A stretch of DNA of 64,000 bases from Eledone cirrhosa (lineage: Eukaryota), in the NCBI GenBank assembly GCA_964016885.1, contig OZ024744.1, positions 88,288,001-88,352,000 of the forward strand. The letters run 5' to 3'. The translations under genes and the position numbers were made by a program. Of this stretch, positions 5,601-56,752 are shown piece by piece. Every line of letters begins with the position of its first letter. Within the stretch, counting starts at the first letter, position 1. Under the pieces are notes generated by a model. The model made no database searches and had not been told where the DNA came from. It worked only from the letters and a program-made list of their open reading frames with translations.

Positions 5601-5632
5601 GTTGGGTGAGGAACGGGGCAAGTGAGAAAGGA

Positions 5633-7675: not shown

Positions 7676-8156
7676 GTTTTTTTTTACGGTTTAAAATGAA
7701 TGTTGGGCACAAAGCCCCAATAGCTGATTATTTAACTCCGAAGGGCCAAATAACGGGCAGAAAGACCCCTCTCACGAGGAGGAGGGTGTCTTTATCTACA
7801 ATTTGGTTCAAGTTTTAAACAATTTACAATTGTTATAACAATTGAAAATTACTATACCTTACAGAGTCGAGCCTCCGTCAACCATGGCATTCAATAATAA
7901 TAATAATAATAATAATGCTTTCTTTATTAACCAGAAGGGTTTACAAAGTAAGACATTAAGGACAATACAGGACGGTACAAATGGGCATTTCTGCGTGTTA
8001 AAAAAACCCAGAGGATGTAACAAAAAAATAAACAATGAAAAATTCCCCAATAGGGGGCACACTTCCGAGGGACATTCGTGGAGAAAGCCCATTAAAAAAG
8101 CCACAGTGACCCTGACCACCAGGGCAAGTGCCCTTTCCCAGTTTTCCACCTTCAAT

Positions 8157-10599: not shown

Positions 10600-10634
10600 G
10601 TTGAAAAGGAGTGAAAAAAGATCGGAAAGACCAC

Positions 10635-12588: not shown

Positions 12589-12802
12589 GTTTTTGTTTCA
12601 AAGAAATATTTTGTTTGATAAATAAAAAGTTTAAATTTGGGGTCAAGGCCCCAATAATTTTGAGTGTCCTTTTCAGAAAGCAATATATGTGAACTTATAA
12701 ACAGTTAACAACAAAAACCTTCCATAACTTGCAATTTGAAACAACTGAAAACAACAAACCTTTGCGGAGGTCACAATAATACGATTTCCTACGTAGGGCG
12801 CC

Positions 12803-12906
12803 AATAATAATAATAATAGTAATAATAATAATAATAATAGTAATAATAATAATAATTGTTTCTACTATTGGCACAAGGCCAGCAATTACCCAGTACATTA
12901 CTGGTA
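12803..12906 (-). mobile_element. 5'-truncated SINE 3' end with long (ATT)n tail, between L1 and L2
   Basis: ccagtaatgtactgggtaattgctggccttgtgccaatagtagaaacaa(tta)n matches the SINE 3' end. Confidence 0.85.
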
Positions 12907-13194
12907 ATAATAATGATAATGGTTTCTATATTAGCCACAATGGCTAACATGAAGAAAAACATTACAGACGGCGCAGAACAGTACAGGACGATACAAAGTG
13001 GGTTTTGGTCGTGTAAACAGGTTATAACAAGATAGAAATCGGGATAGAAATCGAAAAAATGCAAACAACAAAAATTCCCCAATAGGGGGGGGGGGAAACC
13101 TCCGCGGGTCACTCGTAGCGAAAACCACACAAAAGACCACGGCCACCCTGACCACCAGGGCAAGCGCCCTCTCTCAGTTTTCCCACTCCTTAGT

Positions 13195-16100: not shown

Positions 16101-16225
16101 ATTCTGGTCTCGCTGATGACCACCACACCGATGTTTAGTGACCTGAGATCGTTAAGCTGGTGGCCCTGCTTCCAAGATGACCCCAGGCCAAGTACATGTA
16201 TACTGCCTATTCTAAGGAAGGCCAT
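13195..16225 (-). pseudogene. L1 ORF2 (APE-RT-zinc finger), disrupted
   Basis: MAFLRIGSIHV; VYAP, GDWN, SYLDR; FRPITLLNAEFKIL; RSVRQG; SSYSDD; LFGVWF. Confidence 0.9.
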
Positions 16226-16257
16226 GCTGGGTGAGGAATGGAGTAAGTGAGAAAGGA

Positions 16258-17789
16258 TCACCTACTCTGATCGTGTGGGAAAGGGACAGCTGAACCGTCC
16301 CTTTGGATGGTCATGGGTGTCTCCTAGATGATGTCGGTGTATATCCTTTTGGTAACTGACCCCCTGAAGTATCCAACTGCGTTGGGGAATTTTTCTTTTA
16401 AATGTTTATAATGTTCTATTTCAATTTCAATAATGTTTATATTTTTCGGGAGAGTACTTGGTATTGGTGGGGTGTAGTAGTTTTTTCTGTGATGTCTGTG
16501 CTGCTTTATATCTTCTAAAAGTTCTTTATTTGCCATGTTTATGGCTGAGTTTTTTTGTGTGTGTGTGTGAGTGAGGGGGGGGGTTGCTGTCTTCTTGTTG
16601 CTGCTGTTGGGTATATTTGTCTTCTTGTGTTTGCGATGTTGATGTTTGTGGTGATGCTGGTGTTGGTGGTGATGCTGATGGCGTTGCTATGAGTCACCTT
16701 GCAGCCTTTACCCTTCTTTGTTTGCCTTCGCTTTTGGAGGGTGAAGTAAGGGTTTTTTTCCTTTTTGTTTTTTGTGGCAGACCGTTTGCCACTTCACTCC
16801 AGCCTCAGACTCCATGTCGGATTCCGTGGCGTCTGGGAGGAGTATGTGCTCCACGGCTGTTGGTGGTGGTAGTGTGGAGCCCTCTCCGGCGATTTTGTTG
16901 CTGGTGCAGCTACTGCAAATGTAGTTGCTGGTGTTGCCGCCACTGATGCTGCTGCTTTAGTTGTCCGTGGCCTTGGTACAGGTGCCACGGACGTTGCCCT
17001 TCTACTCATCGTGGAAGGAACTTCTGCGTTTTTTGCCTGTCCTGCTCTTGGTAGCTGCGGACAAGGTATTGGAAGGAGGGGAGGCTTCTTTTTCGCTGTC
17101 TTCTGCGGGCAAAAGGCTCTGAGGTGATCCTTTGACCCACAGAGATAACATTTTGGCCGTCTTCCTTCCGCGCTTATAGGGAGATGGAGTCCTTTGTCGA
17201 GGTCTATGATATCAGGGATAGCGTCGATACACTCCTGGTCAGTTTGTATTAGCATTTGCATGCCTATACCTGACCAGTTCTCTCTCCCTATTTTCTCTTC
17301 TTGCAGCATGGTCGTCCTGTTCTCGATTCCAACCAGGACAGGCGTGGTCAGCCAAGTTATGGGCACGTCGGGTGGGACCTGGTTCACTTTGACCCTGACA
17401 ATTTTCTGCCCGCAGTAGGAAGGCACCAAGAATATCTCCTCACTCTTTAGTGTTTCCAGAGAGGGAGATTTCGCCTATTGGCGGGTGGAGAAAAGTACGT
17501 CTACTGTGACGTACCTTTTGCCTCGGGTAATGTGGGTTTTGCCCGCCCAGACGCACCCCAAAGCCTTTTGTATTCGAGCCTCCGTGGCCCTCTCCATCCG
17601 ATGTAACATTTTACTTACGGTGCGGTAAGTCACCGTGCGCAGCTGCTGGTTTTTGAAGAAATAGGGTGGTGGTTTCAGGGAAACGCTATTGTCATTTCTC
17701 GACACCATGGCTCTTGCGACTGCCATCTCCTTCTCCGTGACTAACACTGTCTCTATATTTCAGTGACTATATAAACGTGACTCAGCCAT
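16258..17789 (-). pseudogene. L1 ORF1, disrupted
   Basis: ITRGKRYVTVDVLF; CYLCGSKDHLRAFC (CCHC); KFPNAVGYFRG. Confidence 0.85.
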
Positions 17790-17999
17790 GTTTTTTTTCT
17801 TATTATTTTTAAAAGTAAAATGTTCAAATATTGTTCCAATATTTGGGCCAAAAGGCCCAAATATTATACCTTCCCCTTCACAGGGCAAAGTCCAAGGGCT
17901 TATATCCCTCACACAACAAGAAAAATTAAATAACAAATAATTATAACAGGTAAATAAAGCGACTTACTGGGAGCGAGCAAAAAGACCTCCGAATTGACC

Positions 18000-18180
18000 A
18001 ATAATAATAATAATAATTGTTTCTACTTTTGGCACAAGGCCAGCATTACTGGTACTTTATTTTATCGACTCCGTAAGGATGAAAGTCAAAGTTAACCTCA
18101 GGGGATTTGAACTCAGATCATAAAGGGTCGTAACTCTATGCTGCAAAGCATGTCGTCCGACCCTCTACCGATACTGCCAA
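18000..18180 (-). mobile_element. tRNA-derived SINE, at the head of the left array
   Basis: A-box-like tggcagtatcggta, B-box GAGTTCAAATCC, central gactttcatccttacggagtcgataaaataaagtacc (resembles the MetaSINE domain as I recall it), (ATT)n tail. Confidence 0.9.
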
Positions 18181-18619
18181 TATATATAATATCTGTGTGT
18201 GGGTGTATGTGTGTTTGGTTCGGCGTCCATTTTAACATCTAGTACTTGTTTATGACCCGTAATTTAGCCTTCAGATTTGAAAATAAAAGATAATAATGTA
18301 CTCGATGTCGATATGATTGACTAAATCCCTTCATTGTCGCCGTCTAATGGCTGAAACTAGTGAAAGAATAAATATATATATGTATATATTCTTTGGGTTT
18401 AATGAACGGGAGAAATTTTCTCTAGCTTCATCCAATACCTATTAACTTTATGTATTCTTTTCTAATCGCACTAATTCTTTCTAGCATATTTTGCTGATTT
18501 GAGAGCTTCAATATATCAACCTGCTAGGAAAAAATAAAAATAAATGGGCATGGAAGGAACATTTTTGAACATACGCGTATCATTTTTGTAAATATGACAA
18601 CAGTTTATGATACTATTGT

Positions 18620-28055: not shown

Positions 28056-28305
28056 TCTTCTTTAAGTATCACTTTAGAAGGAGAATCAGGGTGGAGAGAG
28101 AGGCACTGCACCCCATTAAATTTACTGAAAGGTGGGTGAAAGAAGTAAAAATGGCCCGAGTGATTGGGCATTCTGTGTTTATAAGCCTGTAGGTTGAGGA
28201 AGAGAGCAAAAGGAAGAAAGGGGCACTTGCACAACACGCTCCTGGAGTTGAGTGTTGTTCTATCAACGAAGTATTAAACAACCCATTTGTGGTGCCTCCC
28301 CCCTA
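28056..28305 (+). mobile_element. Tx1 subfamily E 3' fragment flanked by (TATC)n
   Basis: FFKYHFRRRIRVEREAL...MARV*; 3'UTR matches 29880-29990. Confidence 0.85.
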
Positions 28306-28335
28306 TCTATCTATCTCTCTGTTTAAATGTCTATT

Positions 28336-28366
<31 letters not shown>

Positions 28367-28370
28367 TAAC

Positions 28371-30116
28371 TATAGGAGCCGTTTACAACCACGCGCTCCA
28401 TCCGATACGGATGAACTCTCTTCTCCATTCTATAGGTGCTGACTCTGGAGCCACTACTGCGGAAGTTGGAGCTGCTGCAGGGCATCCCGTTGGAACCGGG
28501 ACTGCGAAAAGCGGCGTCGGCTTATGCGGAGGAAGTGAAAATAATGGTGTCGGAAACCTCGGTAAACGGGGTGATCGGCAACTTACTGCAGGAATACGAA
28601 AGGCTCACAGGAGCAAAACTGAACCCGGACAAGTCTGTCGGTTTGCAACTCGGAACGTGGAGATGCAAACCGATGCCGTCCGACAACGTCGTCGGACGCT
28701 GGAAGGAGGGACCGGTGAAATTGCTCGGGGTCTGGTTCGGTCTAGACCTCCAGGTGGAGAAAAACTGGAACGAGGTCAAGGGAAAGGTATTTGCGCTCAC
28801 CCAGAAGTAGGCAGAGTGCAAACTATCCTTGAAAGGTCGAACGGAGGTGGCGAACACTTTCATAGCGTCCGTCATCTACTACCGCTTGACCGTCGTGCCT
28901 TGTCCCCGATGGAATGCATGCTCTTCCAGTTCCTTTGGAAGAAGCAGGCTCCACTGGTGAGGAGATCCGTCTGCTGTCAGCACTCTTCCAACGGAGGGCT
29001 TGGAATGCCGTGGGTGATGAGGCGCAAACTGCGCTGACGCTACCGCATCTACAGGTATTCTACACCGACCAACCGGTATGGGCACCGTTTGTGAGACAGG
29101 CCTTGCCGCAAATTGTCTCGCTGACGGAGCTGCAGTCCTGGGTCAAGCAGAGACCGAATAAGATGGGCGCCTGGCACATTGAATGCGCTCAGGCGCTCAC
29201 AGTCCTCTGTCAAGCGGGCAGGGCAATCAGTGGAGCTCCACTTCGACATTCTATAGAGGGTTAGTACGTCACAAGGGCGACAACGTGCTGGGAAAGACTC
29301 TAGGTGTTGAAGGCGACGAACTCACCAGTCCGTTTGGTAGGACTTTCCGCCCGGGACCCATGGACACCTTCCAGAGGTCCCTGGCCTGACAGTGCTACCG
29401 AGGAACACTACCAGTTCGAGATAAGATCTACAAGCACAGACGCCCCGGCAGGGATCCTTCCAAGAGGACGTGTCCAAGATGCGGGCAGGACATTGAAACC
29501 GTCTTGCATGCAACTGTACACTGCCCGGGCGTAACTGACCTGTGGAACTACGCAGAACAACTGCTGTCGTGTATAGGACAAATCCAGTTGACTGCCGAGT
29601 CCATAGTAAGGATCAAACCGCCAACTTCTTTCAAAAACGAAAGATAGGCGGTTTTCTACTGTATAGTGACTATGGTGAAAGAGGTTATATGGTGGACGAG
29701 ATCTGAAGACAGATGCCTTTCTCTCCGGACAACAACTCATTCCGTTCTTTAGGTACCACTTTAGAAGGATAATCAGGGTGGAGAGAGAGGCACTGCACCC
29801 CAGTAAATTTACTGAAAGGTGGGTGAATGTGGTAAAAATGGCCCGAGTGATTGAACCTTCTCTGTATATAAATCTGTAGGTTGAAGAGGAGAGCAAAAGG
29901 AAGAAGGGAGCACTTGTACAACACGCTCCTGAAGTTGAGGGTTGTTCTATCGACGGGGTATTAAACAACCATTTGTGGCGCCTCCTCCCTATTTGAGGAT
30001 TTCGATTGTTAAATTTGTTTGTTTCAATATTTTTACACGATTATATGTAAAATCATCGGCATGTGTCTTTGTTTCGTTCCCTTTCCTTGTGCGTCCTTGT
30101 GGCTAATAAAGAAATA
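28371..30116 (+). mobile_element. Tx1 subfamily E, 5'-truncated, disrupted ORF2
   Basis: LTLEPLLRKL, SAYAEE, LLGVWF, GGLGMPW, zinc finger; ends ccttgtggctaataaagaaat followed by atatctatct. Confidence 0.9.
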
Positions 30117-37279: not shown

Positions 37280-37467
37280 GGATTGGCAGTATCGGTAGAG
37301 AGTCGGACGCCATTCTTTGACGCATGGAGTTACGGCCCTTGCCATTCTGAGTTCAAATCCCGCCGAGGTTAACTTTGCTTTTCAACCTTACGGGGTCGAT
37401 AAAATCAAGTACCAGTAATGTACTGGGTAATTGCTCGCCTTGTGCCAAAAGTAGAAACAATTATTAA
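37280..37467 (+). mobile_element. SINE at the head of the right array
   Basis: SINE body; its attatt tail runs directly into a Tx1 fragment. Confidence 0.9.
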
Positions 37468-38321
37468 TGGCAGTGCTACCGGGGGGGGGGGGGGGGGGGG
37501 GGCTCACTGTCAGTTCGGGATAAACTCTACAAGCACGGAATTGCTGTCAGACGGAACTGCCCATGATGCGCACAGAACGACGAAACCGTTCTGCACGCAC
37601 TTATCCGATACCCGTGCATTACTGAGGTATGTCGAACAGCTACTGTCGCGTATGGAACGAATCCGGCTATCGGCCGAGTCCATAGTGAAGATCGACCCGC
37701 CGCCTTCCTTAGGTCAGAAAGAGCAGGCAATGTTGCTCTGTCTGGTGACAGTTGCGAAAGAGATTATATGGTGGACCAGATTGAAAGGACTGAAGACAGA
37801 CACTTTTCTCTTCGGCCAATCCCTCGTCAACATCTTCAAGTTTCACCTGGAAAGGAAGGTGAGGGTGGAGAGAGAAGTGCTGCCCCCAGTACATTTGCTG
37901 AAAGGTGGATGAATGTGGCAAGAATGGCCCGTGTGAATGGGCCTACTCTGACCATGCACCTATAGGCTAGCTAACTTGAGGAGAGGGGTGCTCTCCTTGG
38001 GTGCCCTAGAAGCGCAGGGTGGTTCATGATTGGTGGGGTACCCGAGTCACCCCAGGGTCGTCCACCCCCTAGGGGGGAATTTATTTTGTTATATTTATGC
38101 ATAGTTTATTTTATATTTTCAATATCTTCATTGTTAAATTAGTCTTGGCATTGTGCACTTTTACTCGACCTTACTGTAAACTCCCACTGTCCCTGTCTTT
38201 GTATTGTCCTCTACATGTCGGCCCTTGTGGCTAATAAATGAAATCATTATTATCAGTATTATTGTCTCCTACATGTCGGCCCTTTTGGCCAATAAATGAA
38301 ATCATTATTATTATTATTATT
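37468..38321 (+). mobile_element. Tx1 subfamily D 3' fragment plus a re-copy of the terminal ~45 bp
   Basis: WQCYRG...TLTMHL*, 3'UTR, AATAAA, (ATT)n; terminal segment repeated at 38258-38321. Confidence 0.9.
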
Positions 38322-38329
38322 GTAGGTTA

Positions 38330-41320
38330 GGACCGGGTTACTGGAAGCTGAACATGTCATTTCCGGCACGTAAGGCTTACAGGGACCGAGTCAATAAGTT
38401 AGTTAAGCAAAAGTTGACAGGAGGGATCATAAACAACAGATGGTGGGGGGCTCTCAAAAGAGAGATTAGAGTAACTTCGATAGAGTTCAGCAAAGAACTA
38501 GCGTTAGAGAAAAATAGAAAGGAGGGGGAGCTGGTAGATAAGTTAGACGAGGCTATTTGTAGTGGCATCGCAACTGACGTGCTAGCGGCGAGAATGGCAT
38601 TAGACCATTTCTTCAATGCCAAACACGAAGGTTGCATTGTCAGAGCTATGGCGCGTGCGCTGAGAAACGAGGGAACTAAAGCTGTTCGATGGGCCCGCGT
38701 GGCGGAGGCGCAGCGTGGTAATAAAACCACAATTCGGTCTTTGGCGGACCGAGACGGACACGAGATAAGCGATTCCAAGCGGATGTGTGAGGCCTTTCGC
38801 CAGCACTTTGCTCGGTTGTTCGGGGAGAGTGGCGAGTCAGAGAGAGTAGCGGATTTCAGTCCCTACCTTGACGGCTTGCCGCGCATCTCGACGGTCGACG
38901 CTGAGCGCTGCGAAAGGCCGATTACTTCAGCCGAAATTCTTGACGCCCTTGTCGGCTGCATGAGGCGCAAGTCACCCGGCTTGGATGACCTGCCCTACGA
39001 GCTTTACGTAAATATGCCAGACTTGTTCTCCGAACTCCTCGAAGCACTCTACTGTAACTGGCAGCAGAATGGGAGTATTCCCAGTTCTGTGAGCAGGGGA
39101 GTGGTGACGCTGATAAGGAAAGACGAGAACAAGAGGGATACATTAGACAACTTCAGGCCCATAACTCTGCTCAACACAGAGTTTAAGATTTTGGCCAAGG
39201 TGTTAGCAAAGAGATTGGCGCTTGTCGTCGAGGATTTGGTTGGGGAGGCGCAAACTTGCGCAATCCCAGCCAGGTCCATATACGACAATCTCCACCTCAT
39301 GCGATACATCATAGAGAGGGTAGGGTGTAAACCTGGCTTCGGTGGGACACTGATCAATTTAGATTAATCGAAAGCATTCGATAGGGTCGACCATCGTTAT
39401 CTGGAGTTTGTCCTCAAAGCAGCTGGTTTCGGCCCTGCCTTTAGAAGCTGGATCGTTGCAATGCACAGCGGCACACGCTCAGTGGTCAAGGTTAATGGCC
39501 ACCTCTCGGAACCATTTCGGCTCTCGCGATCGGTCCGTCAAGAGTTCCCTCTCTCTTCCCTTCTGTACGTATTGACTCTCGAGCCTTTACTGCGGAAGCT
39601 GGAGCTGTTGCAGGGCATCCCGCTCGAACCGGGACGTGGAAAGGCGGTGTCGGCTTATGCGGAGGACATCACCGTGATGGTGTCGAACACCTCAGAAATC
39701 GAGGTGGTCGGCACCTTATTGAAGGAATATGAAAGGTTGACAGGAGCCAAACTTAACCCGGAAAAGTCGGTGGGCTTGCAGCTCGGAACCTGCAGAGGCA
39801 AGCCCATGCCGTCCAACAGCGTCGTGGGGCGCTGGACGGACGGACCAGTAAAGTTGCTCGGGGTTTGGTTCGGACCAGACCTCCAGGTGGAAAAGAATTG
39901 GGACGAGGTAACGAGCTGAGTATCCAGTCTCACCCAAAAATGGGCTGGGAGGAAGCTATCACTGAAAGGTCGCGTGGAGGTGGCGAATGCGTACATCGCG
40001 TCCGTCATCTATTACCGCCTAACCGTCGTGCCTTGCCCCCGTCCGCGCCTCGTCAAGTTGGAACGGCTCCTCTTCAAATTCTTGTGGAGGGGACAAGTTC
40101 CGTTGGTGAGGCGGTCCATCTGCTGCCAGCACCCTCTACGCGGAGGGCTGGGCATGCCGTGGCTAATGATGCGCAGATATGCGTTGAGGCTGCGACATCT
40201 CCAGATATTCTGCCTCAATGGTGAACAGGTGTGGTCGCCGTTTATCAGACGGGCCTTTCCACAGCTCATTTCTTTGACTGAGCTGCAGTCCTGGGTCAAG
40301 AAGAGACCGAGACTGGGTGACTGGCACCTGGAATGTTGCCAGGCACTCACTGCCCTCTACCAAGCGGGCAATGCGATCAGTGGAACTTCCACTCTCGAGT
40401 TCTATAGAGGATTAGTGGTGGGCAAGTGCGATGACGCACTCGGGGAAGCTTTGGGCCTCGACGAAGTCGAACTGACCAGTCTGTACCGGAGGACTTTTGA
40501 GCCGGGGACGATGGACAATTTCCAGAAATCCCTCGCTTGCCAGTGCTACCGGGGGGCACTGCCGGTTCGGGATAAACTCTACAGGCACGGAAGTGCTGTC
40601 AGACGGACCTGCCCAAGATGCGCACAGAACGACGAAACCGTTCTGCACGCACTTGTCCAATGTCCGTGCATTACTGAATGTGGAGTTATGTCGAACAGCT
40701 ACTGTCGCGTGTGGAACGAATCCAGTTATCGGCCGAGTCCATAGTGAAGATCGAGCCGCCACCTTCCTTAGGTCAGGAAGAGCAGGAAATTTTCCTCTGT
40801 CTGGTGGCAGTTGCGAAAGAGATTATATGGTCGACCAGGTTGAAAGGACTAAAGACAGACACTTTTCTCTTCGGCCAATCCCTCATCAACTTCTTCAAGT
40901 TTCACCTGGAAAGGAGGGTGAGGGTGGAGAGAGAAGTGCTTCCCCCCAGTACATTTGCTAAAAGGTGGGTGAATGTGGCGAGAATGGCTCGTGTGAATGG
41001 GCCTACTCTGACCATGCGCCTATAGGCTAGCTAACTTGAGGAGAGGGGTGCTCTCCTGGGTGCCCTAGAAGCGCAGGGTGGATCAGGATTGGTGGGGTAC
41101 CCGAATCACCCCAGGGTTGTCCACCCCCTATCGGGGAATTTATTTTGTTATATTTTGCATAGTTTATTTTATATTTTATATTTTCATTGTTAAATTAGTC
41201 TTGCCATTGTGCACTTTTACTCGACCTTATTGTAAACCCCCACTGTCCCTGTCTTTGTATTGTCCCCTACATGTCGGGCCTTGTGGCTAATAATTGAAAT
41301 CATTATTATTATTGTTATTT
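38330..41320 (+). mobile_element. Tx1 subfamily D, 5'-truncated at GPGYWKLN; near-complete RT to zinc finger with few lesions
   Basis: ORFs 38354-39367, 39461-39919, 39974-40744, 40678-41025; SAYAED; CPRCAQNDETVLHALVQC; (ATT)n tail. Confidence 0.95.
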
Positions 41321-41572
41321 GAATGGAAAACTGAGAGAGGGCGCTTGCCCTTGTGGTCAGGGTGGCTGTGGTCTTTTGTGTGGTTTTCGCCACGAGTGAA
41401 CATTGGAAGTTTCCCCCCTGTTGGGGAATTTTTGTTTGAAGTTTTTTAATACTTCTATATTCTTGTTATAACCTTTTTACAAGGCCTAAACCCACTTCGT
41501 ATCGTCCTGTATCATTCTGTCCGGTCTGTAATGTTTTTCTTCATGTTAGCCCCTGTGGCCGACAAAGAAACC
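41321..41572 (+). mobile_element. Tx1 subfamily B, 3'UTR-only fragment
   Basis: Matches the 3'UTRs of L1 and R4. Confidence 0.85.
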
Positions 41573-43053
41573 TTCGGAGCTAAATTCCAATTTGAACTTT
41601 GCATATAGCAAATAGGTCCCGCCAAAATAAACATAAAAAATAAAAATGACGTCATTCAAAAAATCTATTTCCATGCCATGTATTCACTCAAAAATTACCC
41701 ATTCAGCAAGATATCCTTCTCAGCCTTTTTCTTCGTCCAGCTGTCAGCGTGGGGCCTCGCTTTCCTTTTCGTCTTCTTCATCGTCTCATAGTGAAGCGAA
41801 TGCCACTCCTCTCTTTTCTCCATCAAGTAGCAGTCGTGAAGCGGCTACTGCTGATACATTTGACACATTTGACACAAAGAATCCAGCAATAGGCAGCGTG
41901 GTCTCGCTTTCCTTTTCCTCTTCTTCATTGTAAAATTCAGGCGAATGCCACTCTTTCCTCTTCACCAACGGCAGCCGTGAAGCAGCTACTGCTGATACAT
42001 TTGACAAGAAGGGAAATAGCAGCAGCAGCGGCAGTATTAGCAATAACACCTGTAGTAGCAGTAGTAGCAGCGGCAGTATTAACAATAACACCTGTACTAG
42101 CAGTAGCGGCAGCAGCAGCAACAACACCAACAACACCGTTTGTACCAGTGGGAACAACAAGACCAGTAGCAGCAATAGCGGTGGCAACAATGGCGCCACT
42201 GAAAAAGAGACCACCTCTTTTGCAAAGGTAACTTGCAAAGTAGAAACAATCAATCATGACCACAGAGGAGGAGATGGCGGTCGCAAGACACATGGTAACC
42301 AGAACTGAATTTTCAGTGTCCTTGAAACCACCAACCGACTTCCTGGAGGAACAAGAGCGACGCACAGTGTCATATCGCACGATTGAGACGAAATCGCGTC
42401 GTGTGGAGAGAGCCTCAAAGGCTCAAATCCAGAAGGCCTTGGGAACTGTGTGGGCACGGAAAACCCACATCACCCGTGGCAAGAAATATGCTACTGTGGA
42501 CGTCCTTTTTGCTACCTCCCAGGAAGCAGAATCGCACTCATTGAGGACCCTACGGAGTGATGACATAACGCTAATCCGTTTTACTGCGGGAAAAAAATTG
42601 TAAAGGTCAAGGTAACCCAGGTCCCACCTTACGTACCCGTGTCTTGGCTGGTCATGTCTGTTCTAGCGGGTATCGAAGATAAACCAACCATTCTGCAGGT
42701 ACAGAAGTTGGGGAGAGAGGACTGGTCCGGTATTGAAATGGAGATGCTTATCCAAACCGACCAGGACTGCATCAGCGCTATTCCCGACGTAATAGAGCTC
42801 GGGATTGGCTCCCAACTTCCCATATCTGTTGAAGGAAGGCGCCCAAAGTGCTTCAACTGTGGACCAAATTTCACCTCAGGGCTTTCTGCCCACAGAAAAT
42901 AACAAAGACCAAGGTCACCCTCCTTCCAACGCCGGAACGGCTGCCATCATAAACGGAGCAGTAAGCGAAAAAGTCGGGATCTTTTACAGAGAATGGTAAG
43001 ACAACCTCCGTGCCAGGAGCGGTAAACCAGGCTCCACCACCACCACCACCACC

Positions 43054-43085
<32 letters not shown>

Positions 43086-46000
43086 CAACAACAACAAAGA
43101 CAAATGAGAGGGTAGAACTCATAACCCTCCCCGACCTCTCTCAGTCGGATATGGAGTATGAGGCGGCTAGGGAGTAGAAAACGGTTATTATTTTAAAAAA
43201 AAACAATAAAAAAAACGAAAAAACACCACAGTTCCTCCCTCCAAAAGCGAAAACAAAGAAAGAAGACTAAAGATTGCGAGGTGACTTGCAGCAAAACCAC
43301 CAAAATCTCCATCACCACCAACAACAACCACACCACACCAGCAACACCAAAAACACCAACATCACAAACACAACAAAGCACACATACCCAACAGCAACAA
43401 CAAGAAAGCAGCAACATAACCACCCCTCCCCTCCCCCAAAAGTACACATCCATAAACATTGCACAGCAAGGACTAATGGAAAACATAAAACACCACACCA
43501 ATATTTCAGACGTAAATTACCAAACCCCACCAACACCCCACCAACACCAAGAACATTGTAGAAATTGAACTCGAAAACTACAAACAATTATAACAAAAAT
43601 TCACCAACGCAGTTGGGGATTTCAGGGGGTCACTCTCCAAAAGAATCTACAAAGATATCGTCTTGGAGCCACCCATGACCAGCCAAAGAGACGGTTCTAC
43701 TGTCACCACACGATCAGGGTAAGTGATCCTTTCTCACTTACCCCCTTTTTCATCCAACATGGCAGTACTTAGAATAGGCAGTATACATGTACGTTGCATG
43801 TGGTCATCTTGGAAGCAGGGTCACCTTCCCGACCACTTCAGGTCACTAAACATAGATGTGGTGGCCATCAGCCAGACCAGAATCTCCGAAGCACGAGCCT
43901 TCGCACCGATCTTCGGCGGCGACGATGTATACGCATCTCCCAGTCGTCCAGGATCGGGGGAGGGGTTGCCGTCCTTTTTCGGAGAGGCTTGGATCTCGCC
44001 ATACGGGCCATCTTCCTGGACCCAGAAGGTAAGTCGGTGGTGTGGGCGTGACCGGCAGTGAAGGTAATGCTTTCAGCCTAGTAGCCGTCTCCCCCCTAGC
44101 AGGGGCAGGACGGCCAGATTTCTTCAGACGTCTAGAGACCTTTCTTGGTACGTCCCGCTCCTTTGTATTAGTGGGCGACAGGAACGGTATCTTAGATGTA
44201 CGCTGGGATTATGTGGGGCTAGTATACAGGACAGGAGGGTGTAAAGGCCTCAACAACATGCTCAGACGTTTTGAACTGTCTGACAGGTATAGACTGAATT
44301 ATCTGAATGTGCCAATGTGGACATGTGCAAACCGCATCGGGTCATCCAGATCGTATTTAGATAGGGTATTCTGTAGGGAAACAGATAAGGCTAGTGTAAG
44401 TTGTCCAGAATTTGAAGTAGTCGACTACACGGACCACAAATTTATGACCTGTGGGATTGACTTAGATAGTCTCCATAGGCAAGGGCCCGGCTACTGGAAG
44501 CTGAACGCGTCTTTCCCGGCGCGCAAAGCGTACAGAGACCGTATTAGCGAATTAGTTAAGCGTGCGTTGACGGGTGCGATCGTCAACAACAGGTGGTGGT
44601 TTACCCTGAAAAGGGCAATTAGAGTAGAATCGATAAGGTTTCGCAAAGGAGTAGTGATAGAGGAAAATAGAGTAGAGGGAGAGCTAGTTAGAAAAAGAGA
44701 AGAGGCGTTTAGGACAGGCATCGCAACCGACGTGCTTGCGCCGAGATTGGCACTCGACCAATTCTTCAACACAAAGCATGAAGGAGGCGTTGTCAGAGCT
44801 AGAGCTAGGGGACGAAGACGTTCAAATGGGCCCCGGTGGTGGAGCCGCGACGTGGCAATAAGTCCACAATACGCACTTTGCCTGATCAAAATACGCGCAT
44901 ATTGCTCGAACCCGAGCAGATGTGGGCGACTTTTCAACAGCACTTTGCTCGATTGTTCGGGGGGCGGCGGCGGGAAGCATCTGAGTATGGATTTCGGTGC
45001 ATACCTCGACGGACTGCCGCGGCTGTCAGCGCAGTGCTGCGAAATGCCGATAACAGCAGGTGAAATACGGGAAGCGATGTCTTTACTGCACGAGGGGTAA
45101 ATCACCAGGATTGGATGGTCTACTCTACGAACTTTATGCGTACATGCCAGACTTGTTCGGCGACCTCTTGTCAGGTGTCTACTGCAACTGGCAGCAGAAC
45201 GGGAGCATTCCCAGTTTTGTGAACCGGGAGCGGAGGCGCTGCTCAGAAAAGACCCGAACAAAGAGGACGTTATAGACAATTTCAGGCTCATAACTCTGCT
45301 AAACACTGAGTTCAAGATTTTGGCCAAGGTTTTAGCAAAAAAGATTGGCGCTTGTCGTAGGTGATCTGGTGGGAGAGGCGCAGATATGCGACATTCCGGG
45401 CAGATCCATCCACGAAAACTCCATCTAATGCGATACATTATAGAGAGGGTGGTTAAGGAACATCGCACGGGTGGGACCCTGAGCAACTTGAATCAATCTA
45501 AAGCATTTGATATTGTCGACCATCGGTACCTGGCTGCGCACCTCGAGACGGCCGGCTTCGGGTCTGTTTTTAGAGGCTGGATCGCTAAGATGCATAGCAA
45601 GATCTGCTCGATTGTGAGGGTGAATGGTCACCTGTCGCAGCCGTTCAGCATCATGCGCTCGGTCCACCAAGGTTGTCCCCTCTCGTACCTCTTGTACGTA
45701 CGGGCCCTCGAGCCATTACTGCACAAATTGGAGACCATCAGGGGGGTGGGTACCTCGCGAACTGGGATGCGGGAGACCTGTGTCAGCTTACGCTGCAGTC
45801 CTGGATCAGGAAAAGACCGAGGGATAGTGCTTGGAAGCTGGAATATCTCCAAGCGCTCACCGCACTCTACCAGCTGGGCACTGATATCGGTGGAACATCC
45901 ACCTTGGCGTTCTATAGGAGGCTTGTGGAGTGGAAGAGCGACGATGTTCCTGGGGAGACCCTGGGCGTCAAAGACGATCAGCTGTTTTCTCTCTTCAAGA

Positions 46001-46739
46001 GAACTTTCAGTCCGAAGCCTATGGCCTACTTCCAAAATTCCCTGGCCTGGCAGTGCTACCGGGGAGAGTTGGCGGTTCGGGATAAACTCTACAGGCACGG
46101 AGGTGCTGTCAGCCGAGCCTGTCCGAGATGCGCGCAGGGCGACGTAACCGTCCTGCACGCACTCGTTCAGTGCCCGAGCATTGTTAACTTGTGGAGCTAT
46201 GTCGAACAGTTGCTGTCGCGTGTAAGACTGATTCGGTTATTGGCTGAGTCCGTTGTGCAGATAGCCTCGCCATCCTCCTTTAAAGAGGAGGAAGAGCAAG
46301 CAGTCTTCATCTACCTGGTGGCCATGACGAAAGAGATTGTGTGGTGGACAAGGTTGAAAGGGTTAAAGATGGACACTTTCCTCTCCGGCCAATCCCTGAT
46401 TAACTTTTTCAAGTTTCATTTGAAGAGGAAAATCAAGGTGGGAAGGCAAGTGCTATCTCCTAGTAAGTGGGTGAAAGTGGCGAGTCTGGTCCGAGTGAGT
46501 ATGAGTATGAGCCTGTATACTGAGGTGTGGGAAAACTGAGAGAGGGCGCTTGCTCTGGTGGTAATGGTGGCCGTGGTCTTTTGTGTGGTTTTCGCCACGA
46601 GTGACCCTTGGGTAAATTTGGTTGTTTTAATTTTAATTTATTTTACACGTTTCTGTCTTTTATAAGCCTTTTACACGGTCAAAACTGTGCCGCCTGTAAT
46701 GTTTTTCTTCATATTAGCCCATGTGGCCAATAATGAAAC
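41573..46739 (+). mobile_element. Tx1 subfamily B copy R4 (ORF1 about 41646-43726, ORF2 about 43759-46520), disrupted, internal RT deletion
   Basis: ITRGKKYATVDVLF, CFNCG; MAVLRIGSIHV; SYLDR; jump from SAYA to LQSW near 45792. Confidence 0.93.
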
Positions 46740-47867
46740 TACGTGGAGGGCTGGGCATGCCGTGGATGATGATGCGCAGACACGCGCTCTGGCTACGACA
46801 TCTCCACCTCTTCCTCGACGGTGATCAGGTGTGGTCGCCGTTTGCTAGACGCGTCTTTCCCCAGCTCGTCTCCTTGACGGAGCTGCAGTCCTGGGTCAAG
46901 CGAAGACCGAGAGGGAGCGCTTGGAGACTGGAATGTCTTCAGGCGCTAACAGCCCTCGACCAATCGGGCAATGTTATCGGTGGAAACTCCAACTTGGCGT
47001 TCTATAGAGGATTAGTGGAGGGGAAGAGCGACGACGTACTTGGGGAAACTCTAGGCGTCGACGAAAATCAACTAGCCAATCTCTTCGGAAGTACTTTCGG
47101 GCCGGGGCCTATGGACAACTTCCAGAAATCCCTGGCCTGGCAGTGCTACCGAGGAGTTTTGCCAGTTCGGGATAAACTCTACAGGCATGGAGGTGCCGTC
47201 AGCCGGGCATGTCCGAGATGCGCGCAGGGTGACGAAACCGTCCTGCATGCACTCGTCCAGTGTCCGAAAATTGCTGACTTGTGGGTTTATGTCGAACACC
47301 TGCTGTCCCGTGTAGGACGGATCCAGCTATCAGCTGAGTCCATCGCGAGGATTGCCCCGCCCTCTTCCTTTAGCCGGGAATGGCAGGCAGTTTTTATCTG
47401 TCTGGTGGCCATGGCGAAAGAGATAGTATGGTGGACACGTTTGAAAGGGCTGAAGACGAGCACTTACCTCTTCGGTGATGCCCTGATTAATTTTTCAAAT
47501 TTCATTTGAAAAGGAAAATCAGGGTAGAGAGGAAAGTGCTCTCTTCCCAGCATTTTGTTGAAAGATGGGTGAGAGAGGCAAGAATGGCCAGAGTGAATGG
47601 GCCTTCCCTGAGTATATGTCTTTAAATTAAAGGTGGAAAACTGGGAGAGGGCACTTGCCCTGGTGGTCAGGGTCACTGTGGGCTTTTAATGGGCTTTATC
47701 CACAAATGTCCTTCGGAAGTCTTCCCCCTATTGGGGAATTTTTCATTGTTATTTTTATTACATCCTCTATTTTTTTTTACACGCAGATATGCCCATTTGT
47801 ACCGTCCTGTATTGTCCTGTACTGTCCTTAATGTCTACTTTATGTAAACCCTTGTGGTGAATAAAGA
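46739..47867 (+). mobile_element. Tx1 subfamily C 3' fragment
   Basis: LRGGLGMPW...CPRCAQGDETVLH, type C 3'UTR. Confidence 0.92.
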
Positions 47868-48171
47868 TGCGCCTATAGGCTAGCTAACTTGAGGAGAGGA
47901 GTGCTCTCCCTGGGTGCCCTAGAAGCGCAGGGTGGTTCAGGATTGGTGGGGTACCCGAATCACCCCAGGGTCGTCCACCCCCTATCGGGGAATTTATTTT
48001 GTTATATTTATGCATAGATTATTTTATATTTTTATATTTTCATTGTTAAATTAGTCTTGCGATTGTGCACTTTTACTCGACCTTATTGTAAACCCCCACT
48101 GTCCCTGTCTTTGTATTGTCCCCTACATGTCGGCCCTTGTGTCTAATAAATGAAATCATTATTATTATTAT
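47867..48171 (+). mobile_element. Tx1 subfamily D, 3'UTR-only fragment with (ATT)n tail
   Basis: Near-identical to 41014-41310. Confidence 0.9.
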
Positions 48172-48920
48172 AGTTGCATTTATCTTGCTTTATGTTCATA
48201 CGAGTTATCACGAAGTCACAACCAGTGACCTCAAGAGACAACAAGGTCCGCCATGTTCAAGAAAGAACATACATATTCACACATGCATCTTTAGTGTTTA
48301 GACTTGTGATGTACTTATATTGACAGAATCTTCCTTAGTATATGGGCAGTTCCCATTAGTACTATCTTTTGTATTTCTCCTATACGCGGGTTTCCTGGGA
48401 TTTGCGATAAGTAATCATTAGACCCCTTAGGTATCATTCCCAGAGCGCCTACAACCACTGGTATTGTTTTAGTTCTCAATTTCCACATTTTTCCAATTTC
48501 TATCTCCAGGTCCTTATACTTGCTCAATTTTTCAAATGTTTTTATAGATACATTCTTGTCTATTGGAACAGACATATCAATTAGCAGGCATACCCTCTTT
48601 TGAAAGTCCTTCAATATTATATCAGGTCTGTTTGCATCTATTTTTCGGTCTGTTTGGATGCTAAAGTTCTACAAGATTGAGATGTGATCTTTTTCAAGTA
48701 TGGGAGGTGGTTGATGCTCCCACCAATTCTTTTGATGGGGCAGGTCAAAATGCTTACACATTATCCAATGTATGTATTGTGCAGCTCTGTCATGCCTGTT
48801 TAGGTATTCGGTTGGAGCTATAGGACTGCACATTGAAATTATATGGTCAATGGTCTCTGGTTGTTTTTTGCATACACGGCATAATGGGCTGCACCCATTT
48901 TTTATTATGTTGGCTTGGTA
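48172..48920 (-). mobile_element. R4/Dong-like RLE retrotransposon 3' fragment A
   Basis: CRVCKKQPETIDHIISMC (CCHC), RHD, NRPDII, IDMSVP, EKLSKY, PVVVGALG; (TAA)n tail. Confidence 0.88.
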
Positions 48921-49875
48921 CACAGCCCTCGACCAATCGGGCAATGTGATCGGTGGAAACTCCACCTCGGCGTTCTATAGAGGATTAGTGGATGGGAAGA
49001 GCGACGACGTACTTGGGGAAACTCTAGGCGTCGACGAAAATCAACTAGCCAATATCTTCGGAAGTACTTTCGGGCCAGGGTCTATGGACAACTTCCAGAA
49101 ATCTCTGGCCTGGCAGTGCTACCGAGGAGCCTTGCCAGTTCGGGATAAACTCTACAGGCATGGAGGTGCCGTCAGCCGAGCATGTCCGAGATGCGCGCAG
49201 GTCGACGAAACCGTCCTGCACACACTCGTCCAGTGTCCGAAAAATGCTGACTTGTAGGTTTATGTCGAACACCTGCTGTCGCGTTTAGGACGGATCCGGC
49301 TATCATCTGAGTCCATCGTGAGGATTGCCCCGCCCTCCTCCTTTAGTCGGGAAGGGCAGGCAGTTTTTATCTGTCTGGTGGCCATGGCGATAGAGATAGT
49401 ATGGTGGACACGTTTGAAAGGGCTGAAGACGAGCACTTACCTCTTCGGTGATGCTCTGATTGACTTTTTCAAATTTCATTTGAAAAGGAAAATCAGAGTA
49501 GAGAGGGAAGTGCTCTCTTCCCAGCATTTTGTTGAAAGATGGGTGAGAGAAGCAAGAATGGCCCGAGTGAATGGGCCTACTCTGAGTATATATCTGTAAA
49601 TTAAAGGTGGAAAACAGGGAGAGGGCACTTGCCTTGGTGGTCAGGGTCATTGTGGCCTTTTACTGGGCTTTCTCCACAAATGTCCCTCCGAAGTCCCCCC
49701 CCCCCCCCCCCTATTGGGGAATTTTTCATTCTTATTTTTTTGTTACATCCTCTGTTTTTGTTTTTTACACGCAGAAATGCCCATTTGTACCGTCCTGTAT
49801 TGTCCTGCACTGTCCTTAATGTCTACTTTATGTAAACCCTTGTGGTTAATAAAGAAATCATTATTATTATTATTA
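48921..49875 (+). mobile_element. Tx1 subfamily C 3' fragment
   Basis: TALDQSGNVIGG...TLSIYL*, type C 3'UTR, (ATT)n. Confidence 0.92.
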
Positions 49876-51024
49876 TCTGCTGTCAACACCCGCTACGTGG
49901 AGGGCTGGGCATGCCGTGGCTGATGATGCACAGACACGCGCTCAGGCTACGACATCTCCACCTCTTCCTCGACGGTGATCAGGTGTGGTCGCCGTTTGCA
50001 AGACGCGTTTTTCCCCAGCTCGTCTCCTTGACGGAGCTGCAGTCCTGGGTCAAGCGAAGACCGAGAGGGAGCGCTTGGAGACTGGAATGTCTTCAGGCGC
50101 TCACAGCCCTCGACCAATCGGGCAATGTGATCGGTGGAAACTCCACCTTGGCGTTCTATAGGGGATTAGTGGAGGGGAAGAGCGACGACGTACTTGGAGA
50201 AACTCTAGGCGTCGACGAAAATCAACTAGCCAATCTCTTCGGAAGGACTTTCGGGCCGGGGCCTATGGACAACTTCCAGAAATCCCTGTCCTGGCAGTGC
50301 TACCGAGGAGCTTTGCCAGTTCGGGATAAACTCTACAGGCATGGAGGTGCCGTCAGCCGGGCATGTCCGAGATGCGCGCAGGGCGACGAAACCGTCCTGC
50401 ACGCACTCGTCCAGTGTCCGAGCATTGCTGACTTGTGGGTTTATGTCGAACACCTGCTGTCACGTGTAGGACGGATCCAGCTATCAGCTGAGTCCATCGT
50501 GAGGATTGCCCCACCCCCTTCCTTTAGCCTGGAAGGGCAGGCAGTTTTTATCTGTTTGGTGGCCATGGCGAAAGAGATAGTATGGTGGACACGTTTGAAA
50601 GGGCTGAAGACGAGCACTTACCTCTTCGGTGATGCCCTGATTAACTTTTTCAAATTTCATTTGAAAAGGAAAATCAGGGTAGAGAGGGAAGTGCTCTCTT
50701 CCCAGCATTTTGTTGAAAGATGGGTGAGAGAAGCAAGTATGGCCCGAATGAATGGGCCTTCTCTGAGTATGTGTCTGTAAATTAAAGGTGGAAAACTGGG
50801 AGAGGGCACTTGCCCTGGTGGTCAAGGCCACTCTGGTCTTTTAATGGGCTTTCTCCACAAATGTCCCTTGGAAGTCTCCCCCCCCTATTGGGGAATTTTT
50901 CTTTGTTATTTTATTTCAACCTCTGTTTTTTTACACGCAGAAATGCCCATTTGTACCGTCCTGTATTGTCCTGCACTGTCCTTAATGTCTACTTTATTTG
51001 AACCCTTGTGGTTAATAAAGAAAA

Positions 51025-51081
<57 letters not shown>

Positions 51082-51091
51082 TATTATTATT
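49875..51091 (+). mobile_element. Tx1 subfamily C 3' fragment with open C-terminal frame and long (ATT)n tail
   Basis: ORF 49842-50780 open from ICCQHP to the stop; (ATT)n at 51026-51091. Confidence 0.94.
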
Positions 51092-52085
51092 GCTGTTCTT
51101 TGAGTCTCAGTCATTGATGTTAGTTAATTGGAAAGTTTGTTGAAATGAATATCAAGCCACTACCTGCAGCCTCAGACATTCAGGATGTATCGGAGGGTTC
51201 TTGCTGTTCCTAGCAAGCATGCCATTTGAAGTGTTCCAAAAAGTGGGGCTGGAATAATCTTCTTTAACCATCCTAGGAAACTCTTTGAGATAGTACCTAG
51301 TGCGCCTATGACAATCGGGACCACTTTGACTTCATGACAGTTCCAAATCCTTTTTACCTCCCACTTTAAGTCCTGGTATCGGTTGATATTTCCCCTCTCC
51401 TTTTCTTGCACTCTCGTGTCAAATGGGTAGGCTACATCCAAAATCAGGCACGATCTTTTTTCCTTGTCCAAAACTACCAGGTCAGGCCTATTGTGTTCTA
51501 ATTTCTTGTCCGTCTGTATCCTAAAATCCCATAGCACCTTCACCTGATCGTTTTCTATCACCGATTTTGGCTTATGCTCATACCACTTCTCAGAATGTGG
51601 TAAATTATTTACTTTGCATAGATGCCAGTGGATCACCTTGCCTATCACATCTTCTCTCTAGCCTTTATAGTGAGTCTGGGCTAGGTGTTTACACTCGGAT
51701 ACAATGTGAGCCACATTCTCCTCGCTCTCTCTCCACAGATCCTACACATTGAGCTATCTTCCTACTTGTCAATATGGTGTTTCACCCACTCCGTTCTGAG
51801 AGCTTGCTCTTGCGCAGCCATTAGCATTCCTTCTGTAGCTTTTTTAAGATCTCCTATTTTTAGCCAGTTCCATGTCTGTGGATCTCCGAATTCCGTTTTC
51901 TTAAAGGTGCTATAAAGGGATTTTTCATGAAGGATGCTCTTCCTCCCTGCTGTTATTTCCTTTTTGGACATCCCCTTGTCTATTGTCTTCTCCTTCAGTA
52001 CAATTTTGAGCATTGGCTCCCTACTGTCGGCCACATATTTGTACAGGTTGTTTTTATCCATCTGAACAGAGTCCTCTATGCTGAT
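51092..52085 (-). mobile_element. R4/Dong-like RLE retrotransposon 3' fragment B (different family from A)
   Basis: TEGMLMAAQEQALRT; VLWDFRIQTD, NRPDLVV, LDVAYP, PIVIGALG; (TAA)n tail. Confidence 0.88.
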
Positions 52086-53699
52086 AGACGATAAAAAGAG
52101 GGATACATTAGACAACTTCAGACCCATAACTCTGCTCAACACAGAGTTTAAAATTTTGGCCAAGTTGTTAGCAAAGAGATTGGCGCTTGTCGTCGAGGAT
52201 TTGGTTGGGGAACTTGTGCAATCCCAGTCAGGTCCATACACGACAATCTCCCCCTCAAGCGATATATCATAGAGAGGGTAGGGTGTAAACCTGGCTTCGG
52301 TGGGGCACTGATCAATTTAGATCAATCGAAAGCGTTCGATAGGGTCGACCATCGGTATCTGGAGTTTGTCCTCAAAGCAGCTGGCTTCGGCCCTGTCTTC
52401 AGAAGCTGGATCGTTACAATGCACAGCGACACATGCTCGGTGGTCAAGGTTAAGGCCACGCCATCGGAACCATTTCGGCTCTCCCGATAGGTCCGTCATG
52501 GGTGCCCTCTCTCTTCCTTTCTGTACGTATTGACTCTCGAGCCTTTACTGCGGAAGCAGACCTCCAGTTGGAAAAGAATTGGGGCGAGGTATCGAGCTGG
52601 GTAGCCAGTCTCACCCAAAAATGGGCTGGGGGGAATCCATCACTGAAATGTTGCGCGGAGGTGGCAAATGCTTACATCGCGTCCGTCATCTACTACTGGC
52701 ACCTGGAATGTTGCCAGGCACTCACTTCCCTCTACCAAGCGGGCAATGTGATTAGTGGAACTTCCACTCTCGAGTTCTATAGAGGATTAGTGGTGGGCAA
52801 GTGCGATGACGCACTCGGAGAAGCTTTGGTCCTCGACGAAGTCGAACTGACCAGTCTGTTCCGGGTGACTTTCGAGCCGGGGACGATGGACAATTTCCTG
52901 AAATCCCTCGTTTGGCAGTGCTAACGGGGGGCACTGCCGGTTCGGGATAAACTCTACAGGCAGGGAAGTGTTGTCAGACGGACTTGCCGCCCTAGATGCG
53001 CACAGAGCGACAAAACCGTTCTGCACACACTTGCTCAGTGTCCGTGCATTACTGACTTGTGGAGTTATGTCGAACAGCTACTGTCGCGTGTGGAACGGAT
53101 CCGGCTATCGGCCGAGTCCATAGTGAAGATCGACCCCCCGCCTTACTTTGGTCAGGAAGAGCAGGCAATTTTCCTCTGTCTGGTGGTAGTTGCGAAAGAG
53201 ATTTTATGGTGGACCAGACTGAAAGGACTAAAGACAGACACTTTTCTCTTCGGCCAATCCCTCATCAACTTCTTCAAGTTTCACCTGGAAAGGAAGGTGA
53301 GGGTGGAGAGAGAAGTGCTGCCCCCCAGCACATTTGCTGAAAGGTGGATGAATGTGGCGAGCATGGTCCGTGTGAATGGGCTTACTGTGACCATGCACCT
53401 ATAGGCTAGCTAACTTGAGGAGAGGGGTGCTCTCCCTGGGTGCCCTAGAAGCGCAGAGTGGTTCAGGATTGGTGGGTACTCGAGTCAACCGAGGGTCGTC
53501 CACCCCCTATCGGGGAATTTATTTTGTTATATTTATGCATAGTTTATTTTAGATTTTTATATATTCATTGTTAAGTTAGTCTTGGCATTGTGCACTTTTA
53601 CTCGACCTTATTGTTAACCCCCACTGTCCCTGTCTTTGTATTGTCCCCTACATGTCGGCCTTGTGGCTAATAAATGAAATCATTATTATTATTATTGTT
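52080..53699 (+). mobile_element. Tx1 subfamily D, 5'-truncated, two internal deletions
   Basis: DNFRPITLLNTEFKIL; jumps near 52557 and 52696; type D 3'UTR and (ATT)n. Confidence 0.92.
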
Positions 53700-53905
53700 A
53701 GATTGGCAGTATCGGTAGAGAGTCGGACGCCATGCTTTCCAGTATAGTTACGTCCCTTTACGATCTGAGTTCAAATCCCGTCGAGGTTGACTTTGCTTTT
53801 CATCCTTACGGGGTCGATAAAATAAAGCACCAATAATGCACTCTGTGTAATTGCTGGCCTTGTGCCTAAAGTAGAAACAATTATTATTATTATTGTTATT
53901 ATTAT
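53700..53905 (+). mobile_element. SINE closing the right array
   Basis: SINE body with (ATT)n tail. Confidence 0.9.
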
Positions 53906-53921
53906 AATATATATATATATA

Positions 53922-53987
<66 letters not shown>

Positions 53988-55089: not shown

Positions 55090-55136
<47 letters not shown>

Positions 55137-56516: not shown

Positions 56517-56660
56517 TAGAGAAAGCGAAAGAGAATGAAGAGAAGAAAAGGACGAAAAGGACACGTGATGGTAGAGAAAAAGGAAAACAGAGAAGATATG
56601 GGAGACAAAAAGAAAGACGATAGAGAGAAAAGTCAGGAGAAGGAGAGGCAGGGAGGGAGA

Positions 56661-56752
<92 letters not shown>

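Follow-up and report, generated by a model that had tools for sequence, protein, structure and literature searches.

The closest described counterparts of the locus analyzed here are retrotransposons of the Tx1 group that insert into simple repeats. We examined 64,000 nt of the cephalopod Eledone cirrhosa (contig OZ024744.1, positions 88,288,001 to 88,352,000; this whole stretch is called the window, and positions count from its first letter), in which broken copies of an L1/Tx1-type long interspersed nuclear element (LINE) form an array behind a short interspersed nuclear element (SINE). As passages of the respective papers state, Kibi inserts into (TC)n and Koshi into (TTC)n (PMC4494074), and crocodilian Tx1 elements insert into (TTCC)n/(TTTC)n (PMC3812793). 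The window LINE resembles them in its L1/Tx1-type layout, in insertion into a simple repeat, and in the target left afterwards. It differs in its cephalopod lineage and in its targets, which are ATTAT/(ATT)n and, in a subfamily called D below, (CTAT)n, rather than (TC)n/(TTC)n. According to part of PMC4494074, Tx1-Mar and the SINEU elements likewise connect a Tx1 group with SINEs through a common target, and tandem SINEU-3 copies sandwich the target duplication; there, however, the target is Mariner, SINEU ends in poly(A), and no LINE with the SINEU-1 3′ end was found. SINEU is thus linked to Tx1 by target and not by tail (same part of PMC4494074), whereas the window pair has a 3′ hairpin end in common and its target is its own junction. 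Stringent SINE/LINE pairs with CR1, L2, or RTE partners do show a common 3′ hairpin end with compensatory change, as here (parts of PMC3747384 and PMC4824008), but the partner in the window is of the L1/Tx1 type. In the portion of PMC3747384 consulted, the 58 pairs include only three SINEs with L1-clade tails, although more than 800 L1-clade LINEs are counted, and none of its five mentions of Tx1 concerns a SINE pair. The array also shares its form, a head-to-tail, one-direction series of 5′-truncated non-LTR (non-long terminal repeat) elements, with HeT-A and TART. These Drosophila elements add at chromosome ends and serve as telomeres, whereas the window array is interstitial, carries target duplications, and indicates no function.

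We propose that this LINE forms chains by targeted insertion at ATTAT and that the same protein moves the SINE; to this reading as a whole, we assign a probability of roughly two in three (0.68). Self-BLAST, piecewise comparison, and tblastn resolved positions 37280-53905 (array 1) into an opening SINE, ten LINE pieces, two pieces of elements with a restriction-like endonuclease (RLE), and a closing SINE, as listed below (ORF, open reading frame; UTR, untranslated region; RT, reverse transcriptase).

37280..37459, plus strand: SINE opening array 1, with a short ATT tract as its upstream flank
37469..38245, plus strand: LINE A1, 5′-truncated, ORF2 end and 3′ UTR; the spacer ATTATTAAT precedes it
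38260..38303, plus strand: LINE A2, terminal 44 bp alone; a short insertion or a local tandem duplication
38322..41301, plus strand: LINE A3, RT, zf-RVT, and 3′ UTR; (ATT)6 precedes it
41302..41319, plus strand: 18-bp spacer (ATT)4GTTATT, a variant shared with the downstream flank at 53883-53900; read as a target-site duplication
41320..41572, plus strand: LINE B4, 3′ UTR alone, joining B5 without ATT
41573..46739, plus strand: LINE B5, near full length, with partial 5′ UTR, broken ORF1 (zinc-knuckle remnant), APE endonuclease, RT, an internal deletion, and 3′ UTR
46740..47867, plus strand: LINE C6, 5′-truncated, without ATT at either junction
47868..48157, plus strand: LINE A7, 3′ UTR alone
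48172..48920, minus strand: RLE element 1 (R2-like, probably Dong/R4), 5′-truncated, its 3′ end continuing into (TAA)n
48921..49859, plus strand: LINE C8, head-to-head with RLE element 1
49877..51025, plus strand: LINE C9, with (ATT)5AT before it and an expanded (ATT)17ACT(ATT)4 tract after it
51092..52082, minus strand: RLE element 2, of a different family, 5′-truncated, its 3′ end continuing into (TAA)n
52083..53681, plus strand: LINE A10, missing two internal stretches and head-to-head with RLE element 2
53655..53681, plus strand: example of the tail shared by LINE and SINE, with a 4-bp stem, the loop CTTGT, and then AAT..GAAANC
53700..53879, plus strand: closing SINE, flanked on each side by (ATT)5GTT as a duplication of 18-19 bp

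The LINE pieces are all on the plus strand, measure 44-5167 bp each (14,326 bp summed), and every one is broken. By 3′ UTR and ORF2 end, they fall into groups A (five pieces), B (two), and C (three), and the ORF2 ends are 89-96% identical inside groups and 73-81% across them. As the two group B 3′ UTRs are only 70% alike, the UTR types may number four. An earlier note on this DNA had described about ten LINE pieces from three subfamilies, 45 bp to 5 kb long, in an array that begins at a SINE tail and is closed by another SINE, and this description agrees with our results: the opening SINE ends at 37459 and the closing one starts at 53700. Its statement that these pieces all lie on the plus strand is likewise correct, but the array as a whole is of mixed strand, as it contains two minus-strand RLE elements that the note did not report. 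Almost the entire 16.6 kb consists of element bodies, yet no A, B, or C piece was seen inside the body of another element. The 44-bp piece A2 may be a local duplication of ambiguous origin, as a 58-bp period with 90% matches was found there. We rejected the idea that the array arose by recent tandem duplication in place, because copies of the same group are 3-9% divergent and have different neighbours. Array 1 is decayed and bears no sign of function.

Next, we analyzed the junctions. Of the 13 junctions between the two SINEs, six join a tail to a head with 9-18 bp of ATT in between, which is degenerate in one case, so that the word "mostly" used earlier for this type of joint does not hold. 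Three others (41573, 46740, and 47868) are tail-to-head without ATT; at these, the upstream copy falls short of its complete end by 0-4 nt, with 1-2 nt of microhomology. The remaining four border RLE pieces, two being tail-to-tail through ATT and two head-to-head without it. When both arrays of the window (see below) are taken together, ATTATT lies within 12 nt upstream of 7/13 LINE 5′ junctions, compared with 0.7% of 65,736 background positions; since the insertions are not independent, the nominal P (1e-12) exaggerates the significance. The 3′ end of an earlier element precedes 11/13 A/B/C LINE 5′ ends. The GTT-interrupted ATT variant of the downstream flank of array 1 was found again at 41302 and 53682. 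Because this variant recurs, and because SINE duplications run into unique sequence, the spacers look like target duplications of ~13-18 bp, at times expanded by slippage, and not like a long tail encoded by the element; this is directly seen for the SINE, and for the LINE we infer it. Three (ATT)4-5 tracts outside the arrays (31669, 33669, and 63858), with no C or element end before them, carry no insertion.

The SINE copies reveal the target more closely. Duplications of 10-22 bp, most of them 13-19 bp, flank 13 of the 18 SINE copies in the window at a score of at least 10, a score reached by 9.5% of 306 cross-pairings; the 18 include six nested, non-independent copies, and the copy at 35401, scored with a guessed 5′ coordinate, was counted as a miss. 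All 13 duplications begin within 1 nt of ATTA(T), and many extend into unique sequence. ATTAT occurs in the 30 nt upstream of 16/18 copies, in comparison with 5.6% of 9585 random windows, and a C stands directly before the cut at 5/8 non-nested readable sites (background 17.7%, p 0.006; four non-nested copies without a readable duplication are omitted from this count). At unique sites, the SINE has no long (ATT)n tail, and unique sequence follows directly after ATTAT(T). Since the SINE duplications start at ATTA(T), we read the target as approximately C^ATTAT(T), left behind the 3′ end of each copy. Chains of one SINE behind another, with unique non-microsatellite duplications, were also observed at 19180-19500 (two copies, 19496>19304) and at 57300-58010 (four copies, 57307>57534>57760>57824). 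The SINE has two 3′ variants, one ending in …GTAGAAACA and a longer one ending in …AGAAACC/GC. Long imperfect palindromes, resembling miniature inverted-repeat transposable elements, lie at 22412-22977 and 25372-26193 with SINE copies adjoining. An Rfam search of 53600-58100 gave no tRNA match, and Rfam matches near 53900 were (AT)n artefacts. This SINE may resemble the MetaSINE superfamily, which is defined by a 66-bp Meta domain after a tRNA head.

The SINE and the LINE share their 3′ tail. Their final ~25 nt align without offset, and when the last 26 nt of one SINE type were compared with 121,270 non-SINE positions, the five best matches all fell in register on LINE 3′ ends. For that SINE type, each of the 12 LINE ends is within the top 0.3%, and for the other type within the top 1.9%. 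In the 4-bp stem around CTTGT, 82.8% of cells are paired, compared with 68.3% in shuffles (0/500 as high) and 18-57% in slid controls. One pair shows a compensatory change, being G-C in most SINEs and C-G in most LINEs, and another is A-U in group C. A SINE that borrows the protein of a LINE is usually recognized by such a shared tail together with a shared target. Thus, because both the 3′ end and the target are common to the two, the LINE protein probably mobilizes the SINE.

A second array, on the minus strand from 18191 to 3838, repeats this arrangement in the order SINE, (ATT)6, full-length LINE, ATT, SINE fragment, (ATT)n, LINE, (ATT)8, and LINE. Its three LINEs have three different 5′ UTRs, and (ATT)n precedes the 5′ end in 3/3. 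Its features, with those of the more distant subfamily D, are as follows.

18018..18191, minus strand: SINE opening array 2, then (ATT)6
12921..17999, minus strand: B-type LINE, full-length with internal deletions, with an intact CX2CX4HX4C knuckle in ORF1
12857..12905, minus strand: SINE, 5′-truncated, inside the ATT junction of the LINE
7917..12802, minus strand: LINE that keeps its own 5′ end; its 3′ end is of C type, and the halves are joined across a ~0.9-kb deletion
3838..7892, minus strand: last LINE, with 5′ end, ORF1, APE, and half of RT, its 3′ part gone; (ATT)8 precedes it
28057..30115, plus strand: two tandem pieces of subfamily D, hairpin end kept, with (CTAT)n before each and ATCT-type repeats, not ATT, after

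A direct duplication (367 bp, 98.6% identical) occupies 2972-3806, at the site where the final LINE in array 2 breaks off. Subfamily D is 63-71% identical to A/B/C, and a (CTAT)n 5′ flank was found at 2/2 of its pieces against a background of 0.15%; in these two pieces, the 3′ end repeat and the target appear to change together. The first of them ends ~110 bp before the 3′ end, at CCCTAT, and merges into CTAT repeats.

The LINE itself is, from its coding sequence, an L1/Tx1-type non-LTR retrotransposon with APE, RT, and a cysteine-rich ORF2 and a CCHC ORF1. The ORF2 pieces gave Pfam matches to Exo_endo_phos, RVT_1, and zf-RVT, and their best PDB matches were L1 ORF2p. The ORF1 zinc knuckle CX2CX4HX4C upstream of ORF2 is intact in one copy and decayed in three more. 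Membership of the Tx1 clade is likely: a relative of the LINE (P0005, 77% identical) scored 306 bits against zebrafish BAC82613, which we take to be a published Tx1 element, and 174 against human L1. The nearest protein relatives with a species name come from Argonauta hians (62-66% identity), and others reach 77-82%. In a quick RT tree, which had no L1 row, the window copy groups with its nearest relatives (SH-aLRT 99), sister to a group with a Sepia pharaonis protein (100), so that by its LINE proteins the host is most likely an octopod. The endonuclease motif N[RSL]IGSSRS, presumably on the DNA-contacting hairpin loop by comparison with L1/Tx1L, is kept in 4/4 copies whose DNA identity is 74-81%. 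Atlas matches were RT clusters without names only, and genome and viral contig scans with the proteins or the SINE motif gave no match. When metagenome contigs were scanned for the LINE 3′ motif, 16 loci came up, none encoding a relative by tblastn and none with ATT after, and these were set aside as chance, as was a Pfam match to SecIII_SopE_N (E 0.003, below the cut-off, reverse frame).

Several features of single copies were also recorded. LINE A1 has a run of 22 G at 37481-37502, where sister copies have 6-7 G. The truncation points of C6 (46740) and C9 (49877) lie within 16 nt of each other, from a hot spot, an old duplication, or chance. Internal deletions in three different LINE copies (45735-45790, 52551-52557, and 8634-8637) begin within ~60 bp of one place in RT, and the single RT-deletion junction inspected bears no splice signals. 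Just upstream of array 1, 36067-36627 on the minus strand gives a weak tblastn match to the LINE C-terminus (23%, E 1e-5), an old distant LINE remnant.

The two RLE pieces account for 1740 of the 16626 bp of array 1. They are C-terminal fragments only, encoding a CCHC motif and the restriction-like endonuclease, with RT lying outside them. Among full-length relatives, RVT_1 is present and an APE family occurs in 0 of the 120 listed; for one relative, the PDB matches were R2 proteins only. The pieces are R2-like non-LTR elements, probably of the Dong/R4 clade. Over its 749 bp, RLE element 1 has six differences to a contig of high depth in run X5; as this contig continues past 48920, that position is a truncation junction. 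Elsewhere in the window, a minus-strand fragment at 18560-19100 bears the motif RPDG..T..P...G..L.W, presumably like the endonuclease end of another RLE-type element. Dong, DongAg, and DongBg target TAA microsatellites according to a passage of PMC3812793, and both Dong-R4 and L1-Tx1 were recently active in Octopus vulgaris as stated in part of PMC13282606. Similarly to Dong, both RLE pieces end in (TAA)n (2/2), in tracts that the LINEs also use.

From these data, we propose the following mechanism. A cephalopod L1/Tx1-type LINE lineage would insert by target-primed reverse transcription at approximately 5′-C^ATTAT(T), duplicating ~13-18 bp downstream of the cut. The element end ...GAAANC would come to stand directly before the ATTAT of the duplication, so that a usable target is present at its own 3′ junction. 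Because the target word is non-palindromic, later copies would land behind earlier ones in the same direction. At short (ATT)5-6 tracts, the duplications would be ATT runs, and LINE chains could accumulate over time. The same LINE protein would mobilize a local SINE carrying the last ~25 nt of the LINE with its small hairpin, while unrelated RLE (Dong/R4-like) elements would use the same tracts from the TAA strand, entering backwards. Specificity may come from the endonuclease, from pairing of the RNA AUU end with the nicked primer, or from both.

The earlier note had proposed an (ATT)n-targeting element that ends in (ATT)n and so recreates its own target, building one-direction arrays nucleated on a SINE tail. 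Targeted insertion is borne out, but the target looks like a short word, C^ATTAT(T), and not like the microsatellite as such. A target is indeed left at the element's own 3′ junction; its ATT, however, reads as a duplication rather than a tail. The feedback is sound in a narrower form, to which polarity and array 2 lend support, although an opposite-strand class uses the same tracts. The array does start at a SINE, which is probably not a passive nucleus, as it shares the 3′ end and target of the LINE. The comparison with HeT-A/TART applies to shape only, since we find ordinary insertion with target duplication here. We also entertain a bolder version, tentatively and with considerable doubt: the very abundant octopod SINE of this window would be driven by a sequence-specific Tx1-type LINE that recognizes its 3′ hairpin and is possibly the missing partner of the cephalopod MetaSINE; the LINE's own 3′ end would partly set the landing site through RNA end pairing, with earlier junctions favoured over bare microsatellites, and sister subfamilies would switch target together with the 3′ repeat (ATT in A/B/C, ATCT/CTAT in D). 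The three unoccupied bare (ATT)4-5 tracts fit such a preference for own junctions, although their number is small.

Several observations weigh against the proposal of targeted chains and a shared protein. Nesting differs between the LINEs (11/13) and the SINEs (6/18; Fisher p 0.009), which one shared and equally tolerant machinery does not predict without an extra assumption; the LINEs may need longer tracts, or another subfamily may move the SINE. ATT is missing at 5/10 LINE 5′ junctions of array 1. There are zero A/B/C LINE copies in unique sequence within the window, so that a LINE duplication at a non-repeat site is unseen. The shared tail is short (~25 nt) and AT-rich, and its comparison covered this LINE and not the other LINE clades of the genome. 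The stem has only 4 bp and was drawn by eye from these same sequences, whose relatedness inflates the shuffle test, and the doubly changed pairs (3/4) were matched by 205/500 shuffles. Finally, all results rest on one 64-kb window rather than on genome-wide flanks.

Four other explanations were considered. The run B4-B5-C6-A7 could have arrived as one chimeric cDNA, by template jumping, in which the RT passes from one RNA's 5′ end to the following RNA's 3′ end, or from a read-through transcript of an array elsewhere, with the rest inserted separately. We consider this unlikely, albeit worth weighing: three consecutive junctions lack ATT, with the near-complete upstream copies and the microhomology described above, the block starts directly after an 18-bp duplication, and template jumping is cited for non-LTR elements in part of PMC4494074. 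However, three subfamilies only 73-81% identical would have to be co-expressed, target-site truncation, which the same part of PMC4494074 gives beside duplication for SINEU-2, yields the same junctions, and both the ATT junctions and array 2 are left unexplained. Alternatively, another LINE of CR1, L2, or RTE type might move the SINE, its AUU-ended RNA priming at ATTAT nicks, while the likeness to the Tx1-type LINE reflects old ancestry or convergence and that LINE merely targets (ATT)n, some of it behind SINEs. The different nesting rates and the shortness of the shared stretch suit this idea, RTE 3′ repeats correlate with target starts (passage of PMC6007223), and CR1 and RTE are active in Octopus vulgaris (Table 1 of PMC13282606, seen in part). 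We nevertheless regard it as rather improbable, given that the tails match in register up to the exact 3′ end, that no other place in the window scores higher, that the hairpin is kept, and that duplications mostly of 13-19 bp are closer to the L1-clade range of 7-18 (mode 13-15) than to the RTE range of 7-15 (mode 10-12) reported in the same passage of PMC6007223.

A passive pile-up without targeting, in a tolerant repeat region where ATT runs are tails, would be in keeping with a repeat-rich host and abundant families (very high summed contig depth, which is not copy number). It is very improbable, as no A/B/C piece interrupts another body, all are co-oriented, and the ATTAT 5′ of SINEs pre-dates them, being part of the duplication. 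Hardly any weight falls on repeat misassembly. Among the 24 pieces listed (of 174,698, from four sequencing runs), none spans an element-to-element junction, and the runs possibly come from another individual; in contrast, copies of one group are 3-9% divergent, each is truncated at a point of its own, and the inserts lie between matching duplications, none of which would result from a collapsed repeat or a wrong join. Read joints that link one ATT tract to another, such as 49876 to 53682, can mostly be put down to the repeat and were not used. ATTAT-targeted LINE chains with a shared protein are the preferred explanation.

The array belongs to a known kind, since Tx1 elements that target microsatellites have been described before, as have tandem insertions on both sides of a duplication. 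An ATT(AT)-targeting Tx1, a Tx1-tailed SINE, and a target switch of the subfamily D type were not found in the full-text literature searched, of which some papers were available in part; this search did not extend to Repbase, to Dfam, or to papers behind a subscription, among them the Kibi/Koshi paper of 2004. The partner LINEs of MetaSINE are stated as not known in the section consulted of a 2016 paper (PMC4824008), and in Octopus vulgaris, SINEs account for 11.6% of the genome (part of PMC13282606). A named engine with a defined landing word would explain the positions of SINE copies and the clumping of retroelements. If this is true, the two elements would form a stringent SINE/LINE pair, of which almost none is recorded for this clade, and the known range of site-preferring Tx1 elements would gain an ATTAT target as well as a target switch within one family. 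The A-D series would then be natural material for finding out which of the two, endonuclease or RNA end, determines specificity.

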